Shown here in pieces: positions 1-16,633 of a stretch of DNA of 22,781 nucleotides. The DNA is taken from contig CBDUZE010000060.1 in assembly GCA_965371625.1 (NCBI GenBank), positions 1-22,781 on the forward strand. The letters run 5' to 3'. Position 1 is the stretch's first letter, and the number at the start of each line of letters is the position of its first letter. The notes under the pieces were generated by a model, which did no database searches, was not told the origin of the DNA, and saw nothing but the letters and a program-made list of their open reading frames with translations. The position numbers and the translations under genes were made by a program. The stretch comes from an uncultured Alphaproteobacteria bacterium. Its GTDB lineage: Bacteria; Pseudomonadota; Alphaproteobacteria; CBDUZE01.

Positions 1-59
1 GCCTCTATGGCCTCGGCGCGACCAACTCGCGGGCGCTGTGCGAGGAGGTGGCGGGAGGG

Positions 60-145
60 GTCAGGTCTTGACTCTTATCGCATTGAGGCCACGGCGGCGC
101 GAACGCCCTGCGACTGGGAAAATGCGATAAGAGTCAAGACCTGAC
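60..145. repeat. Perfect 25-bp inverted repeat (arms 60..84 and 121..145) around a 36-nt GC-rich spacer; large hairpin overlapping the 3' end and stop codon of the minus-strand gene 134..784
   Basis: gtcaggtcttgactcttatcgcatt at 60..84 is the exact reverse complement of aatgcgataagagtcaagacctgac at 121..145. The spacer itself contains a short ggcg/cgcc stem. No U-tract follows on either strand. Confidence 0.7.
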
Positions 146-784
146 CCCTCCTGTACCCAGGGTCTTCGAGAGGAGCTCGGCGCACTTGGCGAGCGCGCTC
201 TCGATGGCCTGCTGGAAGGCCTCGTCCTCGCCCGCGCCACCGCCACCGCCACCGCCATTGCCGAGGGGGGCGCCATTGGTCTCGATGCTGAAGGCGAGGC
301 CGTCGGCCGAGCCCTCGAGCGCGCCGTCGGCCGAGCCCGCGGACGCCACCCGGGCGCGCCCGTACTGGGTCTTCGAGAGGTTGCGGTCGGCGAGGCTGAG
401 CTTGCAGCGGGCGACGACCTCGTCGCCCTCGCGGCGGCGCTCGGTGACCTCGAAGCTCCAGCCGTTGCCGAGACGCTCGTCGAGGAAGCGTTCGGTCTCG
501 GGCGAGAGCTCGCCGGAGGCCCGCGGCCGTGGCGCCGCCGCTCTCGGTCGGGCAGGGGCGGACGCGGCGGAGGCGGCGGGCGCGCGCGGCAACGGCGCCG
601 GCGGATTGGGCGGGGGTATGGGCGCGGTGAGGCCGGCCGGCTCGCGCTCGCGCGACGCTTCGGGCGGACGCTCGCGCGAGCGCCGCGGCCCGGTGCCACC
701 GGCGAGCTTCTCGAACTCCTTTCGGGTCTGCTCCAGCATCTCGTCGAAGGGCGAGGCGAAGCCGGAGCGCCGATCGCGGCCCAT
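134..784 (-). CDS. Hypothetical protein (216 aa) with a Rad52/Rad22-like motif (GNGWSFEV ... VVARCKLSL ... ALAKCAELL) and a Pro/Ala-rich linker; paralogous to the N-terminal extension of the HyuB ORF at 11695
   Basis: ATG at 784..782 is preceded by GGGGA (RBS) at 6-nt spacing, 11 bp after the stop of the upstream isochorismatase-family gene. The ORF runs to the stop at 134. The N-terminal helix FDEMLEQTRKEFEKLA and the core GWSxEV ... C.L motif align with residues about 10-130 of ORF 11695..13992. Confidence 0.55.
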   Translation of the reverse strand: MGRDRRSGFASPFDEMLEQTRKEFEKLAGGTGPRRSRERPPEASREREPAGLTAPIPPPNPPAPLPRAPAASAASAPARPRAAAPRPRASGELSPETERFLDERLGNGWSFEVTERRREGDEVVARCKLSLADRNLSKTQYGRARVASAGSADGALEGSADGLAFSIETNGAPLGNGGGGGGGAGEDEAFQQAIESALAKCAELLSKTLGTGGVRS

Positions 785-795
785 GGACGATCCCC

Positions 796-1503
796 TCAGG
801 TGCCGGTGTCGCGCTGCCACCAGCGCTGGAAGTCGTCCCGCGCCTTGGCCGCGGGATCGCCCGCGGCGGTGAGCGAGCGCAGGTAGTTGGTGGCCTCCTG
901 GCTCGACACCACGTCGCCGTACTTGGCCTCGATGTCGAAGAGGTTGGCCTGGTGCGGGCCCTCGGCGCGGTCGCCGACCGCGTCCTCGACGACGATGGTA
1001 TGGAAGCCGCACGAGATCGAGTCGATCGCCGAGGAGCGGATGCAGCCGCTGGTGGTGCACCCGGTCATGATGATGGTGTCGACGCCGCGCCCGCGCAGGT
1101 AGGCCTCGAGGTCGGTGCCGAAGAAGGCGCTGGCGTACTTCTTCTCGACCACGTACTCGCCCCTGCGGGGGCGGATGCGCTCATCGACCTCGGCCATGCG
1201 CGAGCCCTTGCGCAGGATCGCGAGCGAGGGGATCTTCTTGACCCACATGCCGGCGTCCTTCAGGTCCTCGTCGTAGGCGATGGTGGTATAGACCACGGGC
1301 AGCCCGCGCTGCCGGAACTCGAACAGGAGCTGGCCGGTGACCACCAGCTGGGTGGAGAAATCGCCCCCCAGCGGCGTCGTCGGATCGGTGAAGCCGTAGA
1401 TGAAGTCGACCACCAGGAGCACCGGCCGGGCGCCATAGCCGGCGCGCACCCCGAGGCCCTTGCGCTCATAATCGTCGCGGGTCGCTTGCTGCCAATCGTC
1501 CAT
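796..1503 (-). CDS. Isochorismatase-family (cysteine) hydrolase, 235 aa; the family includes N-carbamoylsarcosine amidase, RutB and nicotinamidase
   Basis: Translation has VLLVVDFIYGFTDP ... VVYTTIAYDEDL ... DTIIMTGCTTSGCIRSSAIDSISCGFHTIVVEDAV, including the catalytic Cys in the TGCTTSGC context typical of the isochorismatase fold. Start ATG is at 1503..1501 (MDDWQQ...). Confidence 0.75.
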   Translation of the reverse strand: MDDWQQATRDDYERKGLGVRAGYGARPVLLVVDFIYGFTDPTTPLGGDFSTQLVVTGQLLFEFRQRGLPVVYTTIAYDEDLKDAGMWVKKIPSLAILRKGSRMAEVDERIRPRRGEYVVEKKYASAFFGTDLEAYLRGRGVDTIIMTGCTTSGCIRSSAIDSISCGFHTIVVEDAVGDRAEGPHQANLFDIEAKYGDVVSSQEATNYLRSLTAAGDPAAKARDDFQRWWQRDTGT

Positions 1504-1763
1504 TGCCCGCCTCCGGGACGGGGCCTTGCGCGGCCCCGGAAAGGGCCCCCGCGGGGGCTGCCGGAAAGCTTCGATAACACTTGCCCGCGCCGGATTCAAC
1601 GGCCATGCCGGGGCGCGGCGCAGCGCGCCATCCCGCTTGATCGCCACCCGAGGGGAGGCTATGAAAATACCAACGAATAAGGGCGGGCCACTGTCCATCG
1701 TTGACGGTCCCGCGTCGGGCCGGGGGTGTCCCGCCTGTGCCGCCGATTGCAAGAGGAGGTCCC

Positions 1764-2846
1764 GTGAGCGATGACTCGAACGCCTATCCACCGCCAACGC
1801 CGCGCCGATCGGGCCCTGGTGCCGGGGACGGCGGGTCGATGACCGGCCCCGCCTACCGGCCCCGGCCGCTGCTCCCCACGTCGTCCGTCGGCCTCTCGCC
1901 GGGATTGCGGCGCGGCCCCAGGGCCGGTGTCGGGGGGCGCAAGGACATCCTCTGCGCCTTCGGCATCGACATCGACGCGGTGGCCGGCTGGCTCGGCTCC
2001 TACGGCGGCGAGGACTCGCCCTGCGACATCTCGCGCGGCATGTTCTCGGGCGAGGTCGGCACCCCGCGCCTGGTCAAGCTGTTCGACCGCTTCGGCATCA
2101 AGACCACCTGGTTCATCCCCGGCCACTCCATCGAGACCTTTCCCGAGCAGTGCAAGCTGGTGGTCGACGCCGGCCACGAGATCGGCATGCACGGCTACTC
2201 CCACGAGAACCCCATCGCCATGACGCCGGAGCAGGAAGAGGCGGTGATGGACAAGTGCATCGACCTCATCGAACGGCTCTGCGGTCGCCGCCCCGCCGGC
2301 TACGTCGCCCCGTGGTGGGAGTTCAGCCCGATCACCAACGAGCTGCTGCTGAGGAAGGGCATCAAGTACGACCACAGCCTGATGAACGACGACTTCCACC
2401 CCTTCTACGTGCGCGTCGGCGACAGCTGGACGCCGATCGACTACTCCAAGTCCGCGGACGAGTGGATGAAACCCCTGATACGCGGCCGGGAGACCGACCT
2501 TATCGACATCCCGGGGAGCTGGTACCTCGACGACCTGCCGCCGATGATGTTCATCAAGAGCGCCCCCAACAGCTTCGGCTTCATCAATCCCCACGACATC
2601 GAGGAGCTGTGGCGCGACCAGTTCGACTGGGTCTACCGCGAGTACGACTACGCGGTCTTCACCATGACCATCCACCCCGACGTCTCGGGCCGGCCCCAGG
2701 TCTTGCTGATGCTGGAGCGCATCTTCGAGCACATCAGCGGACACGCCGGCGTGCGCTTCCTAACCTTCGACGAGATCGCCGACGACTTCCGCGAACGTTT
2801 CCCGCGCGACAAGGTCAAGGCGGGAGAGACCAGCGCCGCCGGCTGA
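1764..2846 (+). CDS. Polysaccharide deacetylase / PuuE-allantoinase-like family hydrolase
   Basis: [17 protein letters not shown] ... [15 protein letters not shown] ... [13 protein letters not shown] matches the NodB/PuuE deacetylase fold (HGYxHE). Start is assigned to GTG 1764, preceded by AGGAGG at 1754..1759. The in-frame ATG 1839 is an alternative start. The N-terminal region is low complexity. Confidence 0.7.
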
Positions 2847-2875
2847 GGGCGGTGCGAAGGGGCGAAGGGCCGGAG

Positions 2876-3205
2876 ATGTGCAGCCTGTGCGGGGTGCTCG
2901 GCGGACGCGCCCACTGGAGCGACCGCGCCGGCGCCGCGGATGGCGGCGAGCGCAGCCGCGAGGTCACCCGGCAGCGCGAGCGCCAGTGGCGCACCCGCCT
3001 CGCCAACCAGATCCTCGCGCACTACGGCCTCGCGCTTGCGGACTGGGCCGCGACCTCCTACGTGCTGCGCGGCCGCACCGGGCGCACCGCGCTGGTGGAG
3101 AACCTGAGCGAGCTGTGGCCCGCCGCCGAGGCCCTGGGAAAAAGGCCCTGCGACCCCCTCGACGAGGCCCTGCTCGCCGCCCTCGCGGGGCGCGGTGCCA
3201 AGTGA
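2876..3205 (+). CDS. Small hypothetical protein (109 aa, begins MCSLCGVLGG), immediately upstream of the COG0523 GTPase
   Basis: ATG 2876 follows GGAG at 4-nt spacing, 30 bp after the deacetylase stop. The stop at 3205 lies 13 bp before the COG0523 ATG. I recognise no domain, and high GC makes spurious ORFs common here. Confidence 0.35.
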   Translation: MCSLCGVLGGRAHWSDRAGAADGGERSREVTRQRERQWRTRLANQILAHYGLALADWAATSYVLRGRTGRTALVENLSELWPAAEALGKRPCDPLDEALLAALAGRGAK

Positions 3206-3218
3206 TCCGCCCGCCGCC

Positions 3219-4268
<1,050 letters not shown>

Positions 4269-4484
4269 AACGCGCACTCAGGAAACTCTGATGTTGACTT
4301 GTGCAACCAATGTCCGTCATCAGACGCAAAGCGGATTCTTTGGCCGAGATTGGTTTATATCTGCAATCGAGCCAACTCGGGCCGTGATGATCCATAATCG
4401 CCTTGTGAGGGTGGTACAAAAACCCTAATGATGTTAATGCCACCACTGACCTGAAATTTGATAATATATCACTCGTAGATCGGC

Positions 4485-6050
4485 ATGGGAGAGTTCGCTA
4501 AAATGGGTTTTTCGTCTGAAATTAGAGAGAATGCCCTCGTTAAAGCTGCACGGTGCTGCTGTGTATGTAGACGATTTAGGGGCGTTGGGGTAGAGGTACA
4601 TCACATTGTTCCGGCCTTGGATGGTGGCTCAAGCGATCTTGATAACGCGATTGTCTTGTGTTTCGACTGCCATTGTGCCGCAGGACATTATAATCCCAAA
4701 CACCCAAGAGGGACTAAATATAGCCCCAGAGAACTCCGTAGGCATAGAGATAACTGGTACAGATCCGTTGAAGAAGCAGGCGCTCAGCTGCGCGAGGACG
4801 ATGAATTTTCCGGTTATTACGGGCGGCATTTGATTTGTCTGGACAATGAAGCTGCACGCGATCTTATAGCGGCTAACAAGGACCAAATACCGTTTCGGTA
4901 CGATTACCTCTTAAAGAACGACGTCTTTCGGTTCATGGCCGAGGTTTTAGACGACAATTTGCCTTTTTCTTGGACAGGTTCCGATAATCAACTCGGCCAT
5001 TATAGGGGCAGAGGAGACTACAGTTCCCTGGAAGATTTCCACGATCAACACCCCGAGTTTGAGAAGCAATTCAGCCGTCCACTTACCGCAACAGACATTG
5101 TGGAAGGTGGGCTGGTTCCTTCCAAGATGATGCGTAAGATAGTAGATAACGGATTCCCTCCTTCTGAATTGGGGAAAGTATGCGCGGAAGTGGATGATTG
5201 TGGTGGAGGTGTATCGTATTTTGTTGCGATGCGGCGGCCGCTGTTTGTATTTGCAGAAATAAGGAACACCTCCTCGGAACAGTTTAGATTATCGGGATTA
5301 GTTACTCGAAAGGATAAAGACAGACCCTTTGTTTGTAAATTTGATGACTGGGATGAAGGCAAACTCGCTGCAATCCCATACGGGAATTTGGTATTAAATC
5401 CCGGAGAAGTCCTTCTCATTCCAGAATGTGTTCTGTTGAGCTCTCAAAACCACGACCCGTTAAATACCGAATTCGTGGAAATGGAGGACATGAGTCATGA
5501 ACAAATGCAAGCCGTCGGCTTCCGTACAACCGCCATGAAAGACGACTTCTATCGGTTTGGACCAGCGCTTAAGCTGGAAGGCTTCGATCTCGAAGTTGGC
5601 AACGAGATAAGGAACGTACCCATCCACAGGTTCGATCCTTCGAAATGCTATGTATACTACCGAGCATGGATGTGCGGAAGCTGTCCCCACTTGTACGTTT
5701 TCGACAAACATACCGGATGGAAATATCTGGGCGAGATCCTAGCGAAATCCACTAACAATGGATCGAGAACTGAGAGAGTGTCGATTCCTGAGGGCGTAAC
5801 AAGAATACGTATTGTTGAGACGGACTTCGAAATAACCCATATCGAAAGTATTGACTATAGGGATCAGCAACTAGTCGAGAGGCCCATCCGTTTGCGGCAA
5901 GGTGATTCCCTTGAACTGGAAGTTAATGGTCCAGGCATCCTTTCCGTGATTGGAAGATACCATGCACGAATCATGAGCCCTCGTTGTTACCTTCAATTAC
6001 GCCAGAAACTAAGTTTGCGGAGCGCTTATGAGCACACCGTTCTAGGATAA
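4485..6050 (+). CDS. HNH-nuclease-motif protein (521 aa) with a large C-terminal region I cannot assign
   Basis: N-terminal CCCVCRRF-x8-VHHIVP-x10-DNAIVLCFDCHCAAGH fits the C-x2-C ... HH ... N ... C-x2-C-H HNH signature. A second in-frame ATG at 4503, with GGAGAG upstream, is an alternative start. A -10-like gataat/taatat lies at 4460..4467. Confidence 0.75.
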   Translation: MGEFAKMGFSSEIRENALVKAARCCCVCRRFRGVGVEVHHIVPALDGGSSDLDNAIVLCFDCHCAAGHYNPKHPRGTKYSPRELRRHRDNWYRSVEEAGAQLREDDEFSGYYGRHLICLDNEAARDLIAANKDQIPFRYDYLLKNDVFRFMAEVLDDNLPFSWTGSDNQLGHYRGRGDYSSLEDFHDQHPEFEKQFSRPLTATDIVEGGLVPSKMMRKIVDNGFPPSELGKVCAEVDDCGGGVSYFVAMRRPLFVFAEIRNTSSEQFRLSGLVTRKDKDRPFVCKFDDWDEGKLAAIPYGNLVLNPGEVLLIPECVLLSSQNHDPLNTEFVEMEDMSHEQMQAVGFRTTAMKDDFYRFGPALKLEGFDLEVGNEIRNVPIHRFDPSKCYVYYRAWMCGSCPHLYVFDKHTGWKYLGEILAKSTNNGSRTERVSIPEGVTRIRIVETDFEITHIESIDYRDQQLVERPIRLRQGDSLELEVNGPGILSVIGRYHARIMSPRCYLQLRQKLSLRSAYEHTVLG

Positions 6051-6098
6051 TCCAACCAGGAGAAAGATGAAATAGCAAAGCAGTATTGGGTGATCTGA

Positions 6099-7148
6099 AT
6101 GAGTAACTTCGCGCTCTGCTCCAATTGCTTCCAGGATCAAGGGCTCAAACTTGATGCTCAACAGTTCGGTCTCGTTGAGAGCTCGACTTGTCCAAACTGT
6201 GGTTCGGAAACCGGGCAAAAGTTGAGCTCGGACTTGATCGGGCATCTTGCTCATAGGTATTTCGTTCGAGGAAGCCTTCATCGTTGTGACTACGGCGCTG
6301 CACCAATAATCCAATTTAATGACCGTCAACAGACGAGTATAGATACTTCCCCGTGGTTCGAGTCGGATGTGCGCCTTATCGAAAAGACACTTGGCGTTGG
6401 CTTCTTCTATTATGCACCAAGAATGTGGATGGTTGGCGAAATTGAACCACTAAAAGCATTGATAGAGCCGGAAACCAGGGCCTCAATGATACGCCGTACC
6501 TTAGCAGAATACCCGATCATAACACTGAAAACTGAGCAGGTATTTTACCGCATTCGGAAATCTCCAGCGGATCCGACTGATTTTAGCGAATATGATAGTC
6601 TACCGATTGTTAGGGCAGGCGCCGGTCGACTTGATTCTAAGGGATTTTCTGTAATGTATTGTTCTCAGGATCTGCAAGTTTGTATCCATGAGTGCCGCCT
6701 CACCGCAGAAGACGAACTTTTTCTAGCGACGCTCGCAGCAACGAGAGACCTGCGGCTGCTTGACTTAACTGAGGTGCTTGAGGAAGAGGGTGTAACTGAG
6801 TTCGAGAGCCTTGATATTGCCATTCACATGCTGTTTCTCGCTGGCGATTACTCTTACAACATCACGCGAGAAATTGCCATGGCTGCGCATACAGCAGGAT
6901 ATGATGGACTTGTCTATCCGTCGTACTTCAGTCTTCTACGTACTGGGGGAATACCATTTGAGACGTCGTATCGAATTTCACACCGAATAGTCCCCCGACT
7001 GGCGGAGAGAGAAGGATCAAAGATCATTCCAAATCTCGCTCTATTTGGACGACCGATAGAACAAAATATTGTCAAAGTACGATGCATCAACAAGGTAATC
7101 ATCAATAAAGTTGAATATGGCATCCATTTCGGACCAGTGGGGTACTAG
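6099..7148 (+). CDS. Zinc-ribbon plus RES-domain protein (349 aa); putative NAD+-targeting toxin-type effector
   Basis: N-terminal CSNC-x20-CPNC (Cys4 ribbon). The central region YRIRK ... GRLDSKGFSVMYCSQDLQVCIHE ... YDGLVYPS matches the order and spacing of the Arg/Glu/Ser RES signature. RBS GGTGA sits 5 nt before ATG 6099, 48 bp after the HNH gene stop. Confidence 0.7.
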   Translation: MSNFALCSNCFQDQGLKLDAQQFGLVESSTCPNCGSETGQKLSSDLIGHLAHRYFVRGSLHRCDYGAAPIIQFNDRQQTSIDTSPWFESDVRLIEKTLGVGFFYYAPRMWMVGEIEPLKALIEPETRASMIRRTLAEYPIITLKTEQVFYRIRKSPADPTDFSEYDSLPIVRAGAGRLDSKGFSVMYCSQDLQVCIHECRLTAEDELFLATLAATRDLRLLDLTEVLEEEGVTEFESLDIAIHMLFLAGDYSYNITREIAMAAHTAGYDGLVYPSYFSLLRTGGIPFETSYRISHRIVPRLAEREGSKIIPNLALFGRPIEQNIVKVRCINKVIINKVEYGIHFGPVGY

Positions 7149-7361
7149 CCAACAACTGTACTCTTCGTTTCAGTGAGCAACATTCCGATGCGGCTAGACT
7201 CAACCGTTTCACAAAAGCGCGAAAGTCCCTTCCTTGTTAGGAGCCGTGAATCGAAGGACTACTCGTGTAGGCCCCTTACCGCATGGAAGCGGACATCGGT
7301 GAGGCGTTTTCCAGAGCCGTCGACAAGGCGGTTAGCGGGTGCACGCCCTAGCCCCCGCCCC

Positions 7362-7454
7362 CTACGCCGAGGCCCTGGGCGGCGGCCGCCTGGGCTGCCA
7401 GCCCACCCGGAAGGCCCGCACCACGTGGTGCAGCACGTAAAAGAGGATGGCGAG
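7362..7454 (-). pseudogene. Truncated 3' fragment (last ~30 codons plus TAG) of a paralog of membrane-protein gene 8769..9293; left copy of an imperfect direct repeat
   Basis: The minus-strand translation of 7362..7454 reads LAILFYVLHHVVRAFRVGWQPRRPPPRASA* against ILAILFYLLHHVVRSFRVGWQPRRPPPRSSAGSSD* at the genuine gene end. A 33-nt identical core ggcggcggccgcctgggctgccagcccacccgg is present at both sites. Confidence 0.55.
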
Positions 7455-7582
7455 ATTCCGTGTTCACGATCGAATTCACGGCGTTCAGGTTTTGTACTTG
7501 AAGAGCGAATTGGCACGATTGGGTTCATCGAGTTTACTAAGGGCTACGTTGTTTCATGAGCTTGGGCGAAGGAGGTGCGGCA

Positions 7583-8701
7583 ATGGGCGATGTGAGACCG
7601 ATTCCCGAAGCCATGGCGGCCATGCTCCTGATGGGGCACGGTGGAATCGACAAGTTGGTCTATCGCGACGATGTGCCGGTGCCGAGTCCGGCGGCTGGAG
7701 AGGTCCTGATCGAGGTCACGGCGTGCGGCGTCAACAACACAGACATCTGGGTGCGCGAGGGCGCCTACGGAACCGAAGACGATCCCGACGCCGTATCTTC
7801 CTTTCAGCGAGGCGACACGACCTTGAACTTCCCCCGTATTCAGGGTGCGGACATCGTGGGGCGGATCGCCGTGGTGGGTGCCGGCGTTGCCGAAGGCCGC
7901 ATCGGTGAACGGGTCATGGTCGACTTCAGCATCTACAACCGCGGCGGCGATGGCCTGACCGATATGGACTGCGCCGATATGGATTACATCGGCCACGGGC
8001 GCAACGGCGGCTTTGCCGAGTTCACGACCGTGCCGGCCGACCAGGCCCACGTCGTCGATACCGACATGACGGATATCGAACTGGCCACCTTCTGTTGCGC
8101 CTACATGACCGGCGAACATTTGCTTGAACGCGCCAATGTTCAGGCAGGAGAGCGGGTTCTCGTGACAGGCGCGTCGGGCGGCGTGGGCTCGGGCGCGATC
8201 CAGCTCTGCCGGGCGCGCGGCGCCATTCCCATCGCCCTGACGAGCCGAGACAAGGCGGAGGCGGTCAATTCGATTGGCGCTGAGGCTGTCATCGTGCGTG
8301 GCGAGGGCGATCTGGTCGAAGCGGTGGAGGTCGCCACGGGCGGTGAACCCATGGATGTCGTCATCGATGTCGTGGCAGGCCCTCTGTTCAACGACCTGCT
8401 GCGCGTTCTGCGGCCGGAGGGCCGCTATGCAACGTGCGGAGCGATTGCCGATCCGGTCGTGCAGCTCGACCTCAGGACCGTGTATCTCAAACATTTGCAA
8501 ATCCATGGCTCCTCCCAGGGCACTCGTGCGGCTTTTCAGCGCCTGGTCCGATATATCGAGCAGGGAAAATTGAAGGCTTTGGTGGGCGGCATCTACAAGC
8601 TCTCGGACCTCCACCGAGCGCAGAGCGACTTTAAGGCCAAGCACTTCGTCGGCAAGCTGGTGGTGGTTCCGGACTCGAAATGGGACGAGGCGACAGGCTA
8701 G
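7583..8701 (+). CDS. Zn-dependent alcohol dehydrogenase / quinone oxidoreductase (MDR superfamily)
   Basis: GEVLIEVTACGVNNTDIW ... GADIVGRIAVVGAGV ... VLVTGASGGVGSGAIQL (Rossmann GxGxxG). GGAGG RBS at 7571..7575, 7 nt before ATG 7583. Confidence 0.85.
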   Translation: MGDVRPIPEAMAAMLLMGHGGIDKLVYRDDVPVPSPAAGEVLIEVTACGVNNTDIWVREGAYGTEDDPDAVSSFQRGDTTLNFPRIQGADIVGRIAVVGAGVAEGRIGERVMVDFSIYNRGGDGLTDMDCADMDYIGHGRNGGFAEFTTVPADQAHVVDTDMTDIELATFCCAYMTGEHLLERANVQAGERVLVTGASGGVGSGAIQLCRARGAIPIALTSRDKAEAVNSIGAEAVIVRGEGDLVEAVEVATGGEPMDVVIDVVAGPLFNDLLRVLRPEGRYATCGAIADPVVQLDLRTVYLKHLQIHGSSQGTRAAFQRLVRYIEQGKLKALVGGIYKLSDLHRAQSDFKAKHFVGKLVVVPDSKWDEATG

Positions 8702-8768
8702 GATCACGAACGAAAATGGTCGGGCCAAACCCTGGATGCGACGTCAACGCTCGTGACGGGTGCAGGCC

Positions 8769-9293
8769 CTAATCCGAGCTGCCCGCCGACGACCTGGGCG
8801 GCGGCCGCCTGGGCTGCCAGCCCACCCGGAACGAGCGCACCACGTGGTGCAGCAGGTAGAACAGGATGGCCAGGATCACCAGCACGATGATGGCGAGCAG
8901 CTTGGCGCCGAACACCGGGCCGATGATGGCGCCGCGGTTGATGAGGTGCTCGCCCAGCATCGCCACCGCCTGCAGGGTGGCGCCGGCGGCGAAGATCACG
9001 GCGATCAGGATCGCCACCTGAAGGGTATCGAAGACCAGGCCCTCGGCGTCGAGCTCGCCCGAGCCGCGGAAGATGTTGCGGCGGAAGGACTGCCAATGGG
9101 CGATGGCGTAGCCGATCACGCCGACCAGCGAGGCGAACCAGAAGATCACGTTCGAGAAATGGACCCGGGGGATGCTCGCGCTGACGAAGCTCTCGAAGGG
9201 CTGGTAGAAGTAGAGAAAGATCAGCAGGATGACGACGCCCACCAGGACGATCCAGAATCGCGGTCGCTGCCAGCTTGCCGTGTCTTGCGCCAT
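8769..9293 (-). CDS. Small integral membrane protein (~174 aa, about 4 predicted TM helices); function unknown
   Basis: Hydrophobic stretches FWIVLVGVVILLIFLYF, VIFWFASLVGVIGYAIA, VAILIAVIFAAGATL and LLAIIVLVILAILFYLL. Start assigned to ATG 9293 (MAQDTASW...). The longer upstream ORF extension is Pro/Arg-rich and implausible. Confidence 0.55.
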   Translation of the reverse strand: MAQDTASWQRPRFWIVLVGVVILLIFLYFYQPFESFVSASIPRVHFSNVIFWFASLVGVIGYAIAHWQSFRRNIFRGSGELDAEGLVFDTLQVAILIAVIFAAGATLQAVAMLGEHLINRGAIIGPVFGAKLLAIIVLVILAILFYLLHHVVRSFRVGWQPRRPPPRSSAGSSD

Positions 9294-9442
9294 TGCCTGC
9301 CCGGCCCCTGCGTAATCCGAGGCCCCGGATCGTATACCAAGCCCCGGCAAAAGCAAAAGCGGACGGCGCGCCTGGTCCCCGGCGCCGCGCTCGGGCGCGC
9401 CTGGACCGGGCGTTCGGCGCTTGGCGCCGCGCCCGGAGCGAG

Positions 9443-14077: not shown

Positions 14078-16633
14078 ATGTTGGAATTTGGCATAACGCT
14101 GCTGATCTCGGCGATCGTCGTCATCGCCATCGTCTACATCATCTCGATCTGGATCTACAAAAGGGCGCCCGCCAACATGGGCTTCATCCGCACCGGCTTC
14201 GGCGGCACCAAGGTGTGTCTGGGGCGGGGCGCCATCGTGCTGCCGGTCTTTCACGAGGTCTCCTGGATCTCGCTCGAGACCATCAAGCTGATCGTCAGCC
14301 GCTCGCGCGAGCAGGCCATCCTGACCTCGGACAACATCCGTGTCGACGTGGTGGCCGAGCTCTACGCCCACGTCGGCCACACCGAGGACGACCTGCTGAC
14401 CGCGAGCCGCAGCCTGGGCGAGAAGACCTTCGACGCCGACAAGGTGCGCAACTTGCTAGAGGCCAAGGTGGTGAGCACGCTGCGCTCCTACGCCGCGACC
14501 AAGACCTTGAATGAGCTCCACGAGAACCGGGACACCTTCGCCAAGGACATCAAGGCCAGCGTCGTCGAGAGCTTCCAAGCCAACGGCCTGGCCCTCGAGG
14601 AGGTCACGATCGTCACCCTCGAGCAGACCTCGAAGGAGCACTTCAACCGCGACAACGTGTTCGACGCCGAGGGCCTCAGGATCATCACCGAGATCACCTC
14701 GAAGGCGCGCCGCGAGGTCCACGACACCGAGAAGCGGACCATCGTGTCGTTGCGCCAGAAGGACCTGGATACCCAGCTCGAGCTGCTCGAGATCGAGCGC
14801 CAGGAAGCTTTCGCGCGGGCCGGCCAGGACAAGGACATCTCCAACGAGGAGGCGCTGCAGGTGGGGCGCAAGCAGATCTTCGTGCTCGATCAGCAGAAGG
14901 CGGTGGAGGAGAAGGAGATCGAGAACGAGCTCGAGTTGGAGCGCAGGCGCACCGAGCGCGAGATCTCGATCACCGAGGAGGGACAGCACCGCGAGGCCTC
15001 GGAGATCCGCAAGGCGCTCGCCTTGGAGCAGGAACGCCGCGACAAGGAGATCGCCATCATCGCCAAGGCCAAGGAGGAGGAGCTGGCCGAGATCGCCCGC
15101 GGCCTGGCCCGCGAGGGCGCCGAGAAGGAGCGCGACGTCGAGCTCGCGCACAAGGAGCGGGAACGCCAGCAAGCCGACATCGATCGCGTCACCGCGGTCG
15201 CGGGCCACGAGGAGACGGCCAAGGACAAGCGCCATCAGGCCGAGATCGAGAGCGACCTTTCGATGCGCAGGCGCAACCTCGAGAACCGGCTCGCGGTGCT
15301 CGATATCGAAAAGGAGGAAGCGCTGGCCACGGCCCGCCAAGAGCACGACGTCTCCAACGAAAAAGCCCGCGTGCTCAGCGAGAAGCAACGCTACATCCTG
15401 CAGCAGCGCTGGGAGGTCGAGCAGGAGGAGATCGACAAGGACCAGGCCTTCGAGAAGGCGCAGATCAACAAGGAGGCCTCGGTGATCGACGAGGGCAAGA
15501 CCCGCGAGGCGGCCGAGATTCGCCGCGCCCTCGCCCGCGAGCTCGAGGAGCGGGAGCGCGAGATCGCCCTCATCGCCAAGGAACAGGAGCGCGAGAAGGC
15601 CGATATCCGCCGCTTCCTGGCGCGCGAGACCGAGGAGCGCGACCGCGAGATCGCGCTCGCCGACAAGACCCGTCAGCTCGAGGAGGCGGAGGTCAAGCGC
15701 CTCAAGTCGAGCGCCGAGCGGGAGCAGGTCGAGCACGAGGTCGAATCCGTGCGCATCGTCGCCGACGCCCGGCGCGACAAGGACATCGACCGCATCGAGG
15801 CCGAGAAGCTCGCCGAGAGCCGGCGCATCGAAGAGGAGAACAAGGCCCAGATCAACCGCATGCACATGGTCACCCAGTCCGAGGCCCGCAAGCTCTCGGC
15901 CGAGCGCGAGGCCGATGCCACCCTGATCAGGGCCAAGGCCACCAGCGAGGCCCAGGAGATCACGGCCGTAGGCATCGAGCGCGAGGCCGGCGCCAAGGGC
16001 CGGGCCGAGATGGAGATCGAGGGCCTGCGCGTCGAGAACACCCAGCGCATGCTCGAGGCCGAGGCCACAGGCATCGAGGCCAAGGCGACGGCGCTCAAGA
16101 ATTACGACGAGGTCGCCACCTTCCTCGAGCTCGCCAAGCTCCACATCGAGGCCGAGCGCGACATCCACATCGACCAGGCCAAGGCCATGGGCAACGCGCT
16201 GCAGCACGCCCAGATCCGCATGTACGGCGGCGAGGGCGGCACCGTCGACACCATCCGCGGCATGTTCACCACCGGCTTCGGCCTCGGTGAGGTGCTCGAG
16301 GGCGTGGCCCACTCGCTGCCCGACGGCTTGCGCGAGCGCTTCGCCGAGAACGGCCTCAGGGGCATCTTCGGCCGCCCCTACCGCTCCAGCGCCTTCCACG
16401 ACTCGGTCGAGCTGCTGGACGGGCTGGTGCGCGAGGCGATGGGCAGCGCCAAGGAGCGCGACGTGCCCTTCGCCCAGGCGGTCGCCCTCATGGAGGAGAA
16501 GGCCGGCGACGACGAGGCCCGGGTCAAGGCGGTCGAGCTCTTGAAGGAGATCAACGAGCACGGCGTCTTCGACGACGTCGCCTTCGAGAAGGTGTGGGCG
16601 CTCCTGCAGGCCACCGCCAAGTCCTCCGGGTAA
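14078..16633 (+). CDS. yqiK: Flotillin/YqiK-family SPFH (band-7) membrane protein, 851 aa, with an internally duplicated coiled-coil region
   Basis: N-terminal TM helix, then GFIRTGFGGTKVCLGRGAIVLPVFHE ... TIKLIVSRS ... IRVDVV and TSKEHFNRDNVFDAEGL, nearly identical to motifs of E. coli YqiK. Two divergent tandem ~100-aa coiled-coil units (LEIERQEAFARAGQDKDISNEEAL ... and LDIEKEEALATARQEHDVSNEKAR ...). Confidence 0.9.
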   Translation: MLEFGITLLISAIVVIAIVYIISIWIYKRAPANMGFIRTGFGGTKVCLGRGAIVLPVFHEVSWISLETIKLIVSRSREQAILTSDNIRVDVVAELYAHVGHTEDDLLTASRSLGEKTFDADKVRNLLEAKVVSTLRSYAATKTLNELHENRDTFAKDIKASVVESFQANGLALEEVTIVTLEQTSKEHFNRDNVFDAEGLRIITEITSKARREVHDTEKRTIVSLRQKDLDTQLELLEIERQEAFARAGQDKDISNEEALQVGRKQIFVLDQQKAVEEKEIENELELERRRTEREISITEEGQHREASEIRKALALEQERRDKEIAIIAKAKEEELAEIARGLAREGAEKERDVELAHKERERQQADIDRVTAVAGHEETAKDKRHQAEIESDLSMRRRNLENRLAVLDIEKEEALATARQEHDVSNEKARVLSEKQRYILQQRWEVEQEEIDKDQAFEKAQINKEASVIDEGKTREAAEIRRALARELEEREREIALIAKEQEREKADIRRFLARETEERDREIALADKTRQLEEAEVKRLKSSAEREQVEHEVESVRIVADARRDKDIDRIEAEKLAESRRIEEENKAQINRMHMVTQSEARKLSAEREADATLIRAKATSEAQEITAVGIEREAGAKGRAEMEIEGLRVENTQRMLEAEATGIEAKATALKNYDEVATFLELAKLHIEAERDIHIDQAKAMGNALQHAQIRMYGGEGGTVDTIRGMFTTGFGLGEVLEGVAHSLPDGLRERFAENGLRGIFGRPYRSSAFHDSVELLDGLVREAMGSAKERDVPFAQAVALMEEKAGDDEARVKAVELLKEINEHGVFDDVAFEKVWALLQATAKSSG

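Follow-up and report, generated by a model that had tools for sequence, protein, structure and literature searches.

In classical Xre-RES toxin-antitoxin pairs such as MbcTA, the toxin (MbcT, Rv1989c) is a single domain of ~186 amino acids (aa) that is neutralized when MbcA, the Xre-type antitoxin encoded upstream, blocks its active site (PMC6436930). What does a RES protein do when it carries an additional N-terminal domain and an HNH gene, not an antitoxin gene, lies upstream? This question is raised by positions 6,099 to 7,148 of a 22,781-nucleotide (nt) contig from an uncultured Alphaproteobacteria bacterium (GenBank assembly GCA_965371625.1, contig CBDUZE010000060.1), analyzed at its full length and hereafter called the window. 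There, a 349-aa open reading frame (ORF) couples an N-terminal zinc ribbon to a RES domain, a putative consumer of nicotinamide adenine dinucleotide (NAD+). We propose that its product is probably an abortive-infection effector of the aRES type, encoded by one self-contained gene, the aRES being stand-alone RES-domain proteins that are frequent in defense islands and do not share an operon with an antitoxin (Osterman, Sorek et al., bioRxiv 10.64898/2026.01.28.702374).

A RES-fold enzyme behind a conserved zinc ribbon

The initial annotation had read the RES fold from the order and spacing of short motifs, all of which are present in the 349-aa ORF in the order given: in its translation, CSNC occupies aa 7 to 10, CPNC aa 31 to 34, YRIRK aa 150 to 154, GRLDSKGFSVMYCSQDLQVCIHE aa 176 to 198, and YDGLVYPS aa 268 to 275. 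The profile search that had been suggested as a check bore out the domain call. Pfam RES (PF08808) matched aa 149 to 276 with 54.7 bits against a gathering score of 23.2 (E=1.5e-14), and the match was found in each of 30 aligned homologs. The parts of the gene are as follows.

6099..7148, + strand: RES protein gene, 349 aa, ATG start; two-module, short-form aRES-like
6099..6533, + strand: N-terminal domain, aa 1 to 145, predicted alpha+beta
6117..6200, + strand: Cys4 zinc ribbon, C7, C10, C31, and C34 (CSNCFxDxGL ... CPNC), invariant in the family
6543..6926, + strand: Pfam RES match, aa 149 to 276; the RES fold runs on to the C-terminus (NLALFGRP ... HFGPVG)
6549..6557, + strand: R151 and R153 (YRIRK), putatively equivalent to the NAD+-binding Arg27 region of MbcT by spacing and by alignment with the LFRAR motif of aRES
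6627..6692, + strand: "R" and "E" of the RES motif plus the putative NAD+-binding Tyr, R177, Y187, and E198 (GRLDS...VMYCS...IHECR)
6921..6923, + strand: S275, "S" of the RES motif (YDGLVYPS)

An AlphaFold2 model of the protein had a mean predicted local distance difference test (pLDDT) score of 77.9, with most of the RES core at 84 to 98. When this model was compared with solved structures using Foldseek, the best match was MbcT (6fkg, E=3e-5), followed by NatT (8qnq, E=3e-3), a RES-fold NAD(P)+ consumer from the NatR-NatT pair of Pseudomonas aeruginosa. Identity to these characterized RES enzymes was 12 to 17% in the Foldseek alignments; phmmer and profile searches against PDB sequences returned nothing useful, and the fold search alone succeeded. 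Together with the PF08808 match, the structural matches back the original proposal of a putative NAD+-consuming RES-fold enzyme.

MbcT requires R27, R47, and Y58, and its RES motif comprises R47, E69, and S126 (PMC6436930). The spacing of R153, R177, Y187, E198, and S275 in the window protein fits this pattern, and these putative equivalents are invariant in the 30 homologs. By analogy with MbcT, the expected chemistry would be conversion of NAD+ to nicotinamide and ADP-ribose-1''-phosphate (ADPR-1''-P). Unlike MbcT, the window protein has an extra 145-aa N-terminal domain and no antitoxin. Unlike NatT, which belongs to a core-genome toxin-antitoxin pair implicated in persister formation, it is encoded by a solo cassette of foreign composition.

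Across the 30 homologs, which come from different phyla, C7, C10, C31, C34, R151, R153, R177, Y187, S189, H197, E198, and S275 are invariant, as is much of the N-terminal 145 residues. As judged from this alignment, the conserved motif pattern lies far beyond chance, and the four invariant cysteines speak for the Cys4 zinc ribbon that had been proposed. The most conserved motifs of the N-terminal domain are YGAAPxVQFN (aa 65 to 74) and GVGFFYYGPRLWMVGEVEPL (aa 99 to 118). Neither a Pfam model nor a solved structure resembled this domain (aa 1 to 145), and PADLOC, NCBIfam, and PHROGs returned no matches for the protein as a whole. The segments bearing the two motifs (6273 to 6320 and 6393 to 6452; aa 59 to 74 and 99 to 118) had the lowest model confidence (pLDDT <50) and could be part of an interface that becomes ordered solely upon oligomerization or complex formation.

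A rare, widely scattered family without a conserved partner gene

A protein search with the RES protein recovered 1,646 homologs at E<=1e-3. Among the best 120 of these, nearly all were full length (93 to 100% of the query), mostly 345 to 390 aa and 59 to 73% identical, and RES was the sole Pfam domain. Where homologs carried names, these were "RES family NAD+ phosphorylase" or "RES domain-containing protein". The architecture had been called unusual, which holds relative to the RES proteins of toxin-antitoxin systems only; it characterizes a large, conserved family that is named by NCBI, the build was listed in 2013 (PMC3710099), and more distant aRES were shown to be anti-phage in 2026 (bioRxiv 10.64898/2026.01.28.702374). 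New here is a compact, strongly conserved short-form clade of ~350 aa whose N-terminal domain escapes the Pfam model that defines aRES. HMMER-based annotation pipelines and aRES censuses will miss or mislabel this clade.

In a scan of one genome per species, 132 confirmed copies of the RES family were found among 185,579 species; the locus analyses below rest on 80 loci returned from these 132. Hosts among the 80 loci included Alpha-, Beta-, and Gammaproteobacteria, Desulfobacterota, Acidobacteriota, Nitrospirota, Verrucomicrobiota, Latescibacterota, Poribacteria, Deinococcota, Bacillota, and Bacteroidota, among others, and a Chlorobiota member was seen outside the species scan. In 42 of 69 loci, the G+C (GC) content of the RES gene fell short of the flanking GC by more than 5 points. 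The family is rare and sparsely spread over more than 10 phyla; this scattered distribution and the lowered GC both point to horizontal transfer. Only 5 viral contigs carried it. A profile of the N-terminal domain alone returned 339 matches from 1.84 billion representatives, and the 150 matches listed were fragments or proteins of 270 to 390 aa, with two exceptions of 660 and 468 aa. A RES domain was present in each of the 10 N-domain matches checked with Pfam.

To survey neighbors, ORFs were called at each locus and the two nearest genes on each side were clustered all against all. No conserved neighbor of the RES gene emerged in the 80 loci, save in three loci that copy one place, and an Xre-type antitoxin was found beside it in none of the 80. 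When 150 immediate neighbors were compared with Pfam and PADLOC, no family occurred more than three times. These neighbors included GajA (Gabija), TIR_2, DUF4365, ResIII, OLD-type TOPRIM proteins, transposases, and integrases, together with ordinary metabolic and housekeeping genes. Of the upstream genes that were tightly spaced and on the same strand, the ten examined individually encoded a type I restriction S subunit (Methylase_S), a D12 adenine methylase, an Mrr-type endonuclease (Mrr_cat), a DUF4145 (HEPN) protein, a DUF4268 protein, a transglutaminase-like protein, and four proteins of no recognized type. In three Stellaceae loci, the RES gene adjoins a phage- or gene-transfer-agent-like tail module (Phage-tail_3, Rcc01698_C, and Phage_Tail_Tip) and a lysozyme gene, and one of these contigs (L002, L003, and L012) also occurs in the viral collection (L088).

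With no conserved neighbor in 80 loci, the earlier statement that this is not a classical, Xre-neutralized toxin of ~150 to 190 aa proved sound. In the window itself, the operon contains no Xre/COG5642-type antitoxin gene, and the upstream gene encodes a 521-aa HNH protein, the only defense-type neighbor of the RES gene there. At 349 aa and with a conserved 145-aa N-terminal domain, the protein also lies outside the ~150 to 250 aa of single-domain Xre-RES toxins.

Two metagenome contigs provided a natural comparison with and without the gene. L123 and L117 are syntenic on both sides at 88 to 91% DNA identity, and where L117 has 78 nt (4565 to 4642), L123 carries a 1,066-nt insertion (4565 to 5630) that consists of exactly the RES gene plus ~15 nt of flank on each side. 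The insertion lies directly after the stop codon of an HNH-family gene and is without flanking repeats. Because the two contigs differ by exactly that gene, the RES gene is a self-contained cassette and moves as a single gene, which we count among the new findings. Stand-alone status thus holds at the level of the family, with the caveat that six loci, the window among them, have an HNH-family gene next to RES.

Relationship to aRES

The published aRES are defined by a length of 300 to 600 aa, a RES domain, and PF18870 (HEPN/RES-NTD1) at >80% HHsearch probability, and occur in 3.3% of Pseudomonadota genomes (bioRxiv 10.64898/2026.01.28.702374). Three proteins were tested (those of E. coli UC5, K. 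pneumoniae S_34AVR, and E. chengduensis); they confer protection on E. coli against diverse phages, accompanied by growth arrest, and are not toxic without phage. During infection, NAD+ is depleted to nicotinamide and ADPR-1''-P, and active-site mutants lose defense (bioRxiv 10.64898/2026.01.28.702374). The product ADPR-1''-P escapes the phage NAD+-rebuilding pathway NARP1, and phages counter aRES by adding a Macro-domain phosphatase to NARP1 or with aRad1 inhibitors (bioRxiv 10.64898/2026.01.28.702374). The Methods of the preprint cite the RES Pfam model as PF00808, whereas the RES domain is PF08808.

The window protein, at 349 aa and with a PF08808 match, has the size and the RES domain of an aRES. 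Like aRES, it is encoded by a gene of a stand-alone kind without an antitoxin and combines an N-terminal CxxC...CxxC zinc ribbon with RES at the C-terminus; its catalytic residues (R, R, Y, E, and S) align with those of aRES. The aRES are frequent in defense islands, and some loci of the short-form family likewise have defense or mobile-element genes as neighbors. The tested aRES start with Y-I-C-H-K-C-V-x-D ... C-S-Y-C and the window protein with L-C-S-N-C-F-x-D ... C-P-N-C, in a common CxxC-x19-20-CxxC layout. They differ in length, since full-length plasmid relatives of the tested aRES reach ~450 to 500 aa, although other aRES-type plasmid proteins measure 340 to 368 aa. Unlike the longer proteins, the window protein has neither the acidic helical NTD1 segment (W...RYFN motif) nor the C-terminal extension. 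Its gene lies 48 nt behind an HNH gene, and its family is nearly absent from plasmids, with 1 record against 781 for aRES by tblastn.

The fusion of HEPN/RES-NTD1 to RES, and the build of zinc ribbon, HEPN/RES-NTD1, and RES, were listed by Anantharaman et al. 2013 (PMC3710099), and the domain order of the latter equals that of the window protein. HEPN/RES-NTD1 is described as mostly alpha-helical and ~100 aa long (PMC3710099), whereas aa 56 to 145 of the window protein are predicted to be alpha+beta and have no demonstrable similarity to it.

For profile comparisons, eight aRES were assembled from Table S4 of the preprint and from plasmids found by tblastn. In a full-length comparison, the RES family profile (A1) matched all eight at 97.8 to 98.6% probability, with E down to 1e-14, and the alignment ran from the first Cys to the end of the RES domain with both zinc knuckles in register. 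This full-length score is carried by the RES domain. When 219 N-termini of the family were scored against a hidden Markov model (HMM) of the aRES N-domain, the mean was 7.8 bits, while shuffles with fixed Cys positions gave a mean of -1.2 and a 95th percentile of 3.4; the likeness of the N-domains therefore exceeds the four Cys, yet it is modest. A word-indexed protein search for PF18870 proteins with the K. pneumoniae aRES N-domain as query gave one match.

The genome list of the aRES preprint includes Aquincola tertiaricarbonis MIMtkpLc11, Nitrosospira sp. Nsp1, and Achromobacter insolitus DSM 23807. Short-form family loci occur in the first two strains (L077 and L027, respectively) and in A. 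insolitus LMG 6003 (L082). We regard LMG 6003 and DSM 23807 as one type strain, and most other family loci lie in assemblies that, judged by accession series, presumably post-date the preprint's 2017 database. The three matches were obtained among 18 strain or species names tried, of which 12 were names of family loci. Given the 3.3% frequency of aRES in Pseudomonadota genomes, three matches exceed coincidence, and the short-form clade has likely already been swept into the aRES census. From these comparisons, we provisionally class the window protein as a short form of the aRES kind, without placing it firmly in the subfamily to which the tested proteins belong.

Two plasmid-borne relatives deserve mention. 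The Rhizobium phaseoli plasmid pRphaR723b (L101, 1 to 1417) encodes a 340-aa aRES-type RES protein whose knuckle, CCHACFGDRGL, is close to the CSNCFQDQGL of the window protein; the gene 5' of it is annotated as "sce7725 family protein". On K. pneumoniae plasmid pJX5-1 (L099) and more than 20 similar plasmids, an aRES homolog is annotated as three overlapping pieces. In these large Klebsiella IncFIB/IncHI1B plasmids the pieces are a hypothetical protein and two "RES domain-containing" fragments, which suggests a frameshifted pseudogene fixed in that plasmid lineage.

The HNH gene is a recurrent but facultative neighbor

The RES gene of the window lies in a short island of low GC content together with the upstream HNH gene.

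4270..7250, no strand: low-GC imported island, ~47% GC against ~68% in the flanks; HNH and RES genes only
4485..6050, + strand: HNH-motif protein gene, 521 aa; C-terminal part of ~450 aa uncharacterized
4557..4679, + strand: HNH nuclease motif, aa 25 to 65 (CCVCRR...HHIVP...CFDCHC), PF01844
6051..6098, + strand: HNH-RES spacer, 48 nt from the HNH stop codon to the RES start codon, with no room for an antitoxin gene

GC was 0.473 for the HNH gene, 0.471 for the RES gene, and 0.677 for the rest of the window. The two genes entered a high-GC genome by horizontal transfer as a 2.6-kilobase (kb) low-GC block. By Pfam, the island is bordered by a cobW-family GTPase gene (3195 to 4268) and a Zn-dependent dehydrogenase gene (7556 to 8701).

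PF01844 matched the HNH protein at aa 25 to 65 with 32.2 bits against a cut-off of 21.4 (E=1.2e-7), and nothing else in it was recognizable. The same is true of its family, proteins of ~500 to 550 aa in which the first ~70 aa (the HNH motif) alone are recognizable; many residues of the C-terminal part (~450 aa), a WxxGSCPH motif among them, are invariant, and this part has no match among known domains. Family members are mostly solitary, sometimes lying beside GmrSD, Dcm/Vsr, or transposases, and the family looks like an uncharacterized single-gene defense candidate. In viral contigs, the search for it gave three marginal 33-aa matches only (E about 5e-4), with no real homolog.

The initial annotation had treated the HNH protein as a possible partner or neutralizer of the RES protein, a suggestion that did not survive comparison across loci. 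Of the 80 RES genome loci, 1 (L009) had an adjoining HNH gene; this locus was also the sole match when 83 RES loci were searched with the HNH protein by tblastn. Two of six close HNH homologs lie beside RES (L009 and L084); the other four are solitary, among them L105, which sits among GmrSD and Dcm/Vsr defense genes, and L104, which lies beside transposases. A metagenome scan for the HNH family yielded 80 loci, in four of which RES was adjacent (L107, L110, L123, and L173). L107 is identical to L084; the HNH protein of L123 is 31% identical to that of the window and its RES protein 68%; and in L173 the two genes are divergently oriented. About 75 of these 80 loci were without RES, but only 52 of them reach at least 1,100 nt downstream, which is enough for a RES gene. 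Since the site that holds both genes in L123 holds the HNH gene alone in L117, each gene works without the other. By any classical definition the HNH protein is no antitoxin, and it would not be needed for control of the RES protein.

Nevertheless, RES was the sole recurrent neighbor of the HNH family. The window, L009, and L084 have in common a contiguous 2.6-kb block at ~65% DNA identity that comprises both genes and nothing else, with the genes on the same strand and 10 to 48 nt apart, and their three RES-linked HNH proteins form a clade. Six independent HNH-RES adjacencies between two rare families are far above random placement. We read the two as autonomous genes of the defense-island type that are repeatedly co-located and sometimes co-transferred, and this recurrent, facultative linkage of RES to an uncharacterized family of large (520-aa) HNH proteins is new. 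In L084 (ENA ERZ27250979, k141_9328; 1 to 9345), the HNH-RES pair is the terminal cargo of a mobile element encoding a tyrosine integrase, an AlpA-like helix-turn-helix protein, a DnaG-type zinc ribbon, and a Toprim/AAA_25 primase-helicase, a layout of the P4-like satellite or integrative mobilizable island kind.

Proposed mechanism and alternative explanations

We favor, with somewhat better than even confidence, a role for the RES gene as a self-contained abortive-infection effector of the aRES type. By analogy with aRES and MbcT, the C-terminal RES domain (aa ~146 to 349) would act as an NAD+ phosphorylase, turning NAD+ plus phosphate into nicotinamide and ADPR-1''-P. The N-terminal domain (aa 1 to 145), a candidate sensor or autoinhibitory module, might keep the enzyme off in uninfected cells and release it on an infection cue. 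No antitoxin is present, and none would be needed. As in aRES, the resulting collapse of NAD+ would stop growth and abort phage replication. Chemistry, defense role, and abortive outcome are all carried over in this model from the published aRES and MbcT work, whereas the RES fold, the intact catalytic residues, the conserved zinc ribbon, the solo-gene status, the single-gene mobility, and the foreign composition were observed here.

Several observations weigh against assigning the protein to aRES in this way. With the RES domain removed, hhalign of the N-domains gave E=0.002 to 0.006 at 6 to 12% probability over 52 columns, covering the zinc ribbon and first helix. By hmmscan, PF18870 was found neither in the window protein nor in any of 30 family members or 10 distant representatives, though for this model the sensitivity of hmmscan is limited: it detects PF18870 in aRES proteins but not in the aRES-type protein of L101. 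BLASTP against the E. coli aRES gave a match of just 56 aa, at 29% identity, within the RES core, and tblastn of the window protein recovered 0 of 781 plasmid aRES genes. Identity of 50 to 73% across phyla is unusually high conservation for an immune sensor, and no PADLOC 2023 model matches the protein. Finally, the HNH gene lies 48 nt upstream and the pair recurs elsewhere, which makes a functional link possible.

That link could take the form of a two-gene defense module in which the HNH protein senses infection or activates RES, or in which a nuclease and an NAD+ depleter are co-selected. The tight same-strand spacing in the window, L009, and L084, the 2.6-kb block as the only DNA these loci have in common, the clade formed by their HNH proteins, and the recurrence of RES in L107, L110, L123, and L173 as the sole repeated HNH neighbor all argue for it, the more so as six independent adjacencies are far above random placement for a family with 132 hits among 185,579 species genomes. 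We nonetheless regard such a module as unlikely, as 79 of 80 RES genome loci lack the HNH gene, four of six close HNH homologs and ~75 of 80 metagenomic HNH loci (only 52 of them long enough) lack RES, L117 has the HNH gene alone at the site occupied by both in L123, and clustering of defense genes in islands has causes besides direct interaction. Going further, the short-form clade might constitute a distinct class of aRES, in which aa 56 to 145 would be a new sensor domain unrelated to HEPN/RES-NTD1 and the cassettes would preferentially settle 3' of large HNH nucleases and cooperate with them. NAD+ depletion might then, for example, be triggered by, or back up, DNA cleavage by the HNH protein in a facultative two-effector immune module. 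We consider this picture distinctly unlikely. If the N-terminal domain is a different sensor, the clade would be useful for asking how aRES are switched on, a question outside the scope of the aRES preprint.

The remaining alternatives concern the enzyme itself and its use. RES-fold enzymes are not uniform in chemistry. ParT, for example, ADP-ribosylates Prs, and the window protein could likewise be a protein ADP-ribosyltransferase or a plain NAD+ glycohydrolase. Identity to characterized RES enzymes is low (12 to 17%), and a relationship of the RES fold to ADP-ribosyltransferases has been noted (PMC6436930). However, the best structural matches are the NAD+-degrading enzymes MbcT, an NAD+ phosphorylase, and NatT, the closest tested two-domain relatives (the aRES) make ADPR-1''-P, and the R, Y, E, and S residues important in MbcT are all kept, so that another chemistry or target seems quite improbable. 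Equally, classical RES proteins are toxins of toxin-antitoxin systems and this gene sits on mobile DNA of foreign composition, and the initial annotation had allowed for neutralization by the upstream gene. The protein might then be neutralized by the HNH protein, by an unannotated small peptide or RNA, or by a factor of the host, and would serve to stabilize the island or, as for NatT, to promote persistence in place of defense. Such a toxin would have to do without an Xre or any other conserved neighbor in 80 loci, without an antitoxin gene in the 48-nt upstream spacer, and without an Rfam match anywhere in the window; the L123 gene was inserted alone, with ~15 nt of flank on each side, and tested stand-alone homologs are not toxic without phage (bioRxiv 10.64898/2026.01.28.702374). 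We hold this last explanation to be very improbable and retain the aRES-type effector as the preferred reading.

Other features of the window

At the boundaries of the island, we found no tRNA gene, integrase, or convincing flanking or direct repeats, and an Rfam scan of the window gave no match. One promoter-like site lies 5' of the HNH gene.

4437..4465, + strand: promoter-like site, a consensus match only, not above shuffle expectation

The promoter scan gave 5 sites, compared with 3.8 +/- 2.1 from shuffles, and the terminator scan was likewise not above chance. Further downstream, at 14500 to 16000, AT skew reaches 0.3 to 0.47 within an 851-aa ORF (14078 to 16633) that has an SPFH/Band 7 N-terminus, which suggests a compositionally biased or repetitive coding stretch.

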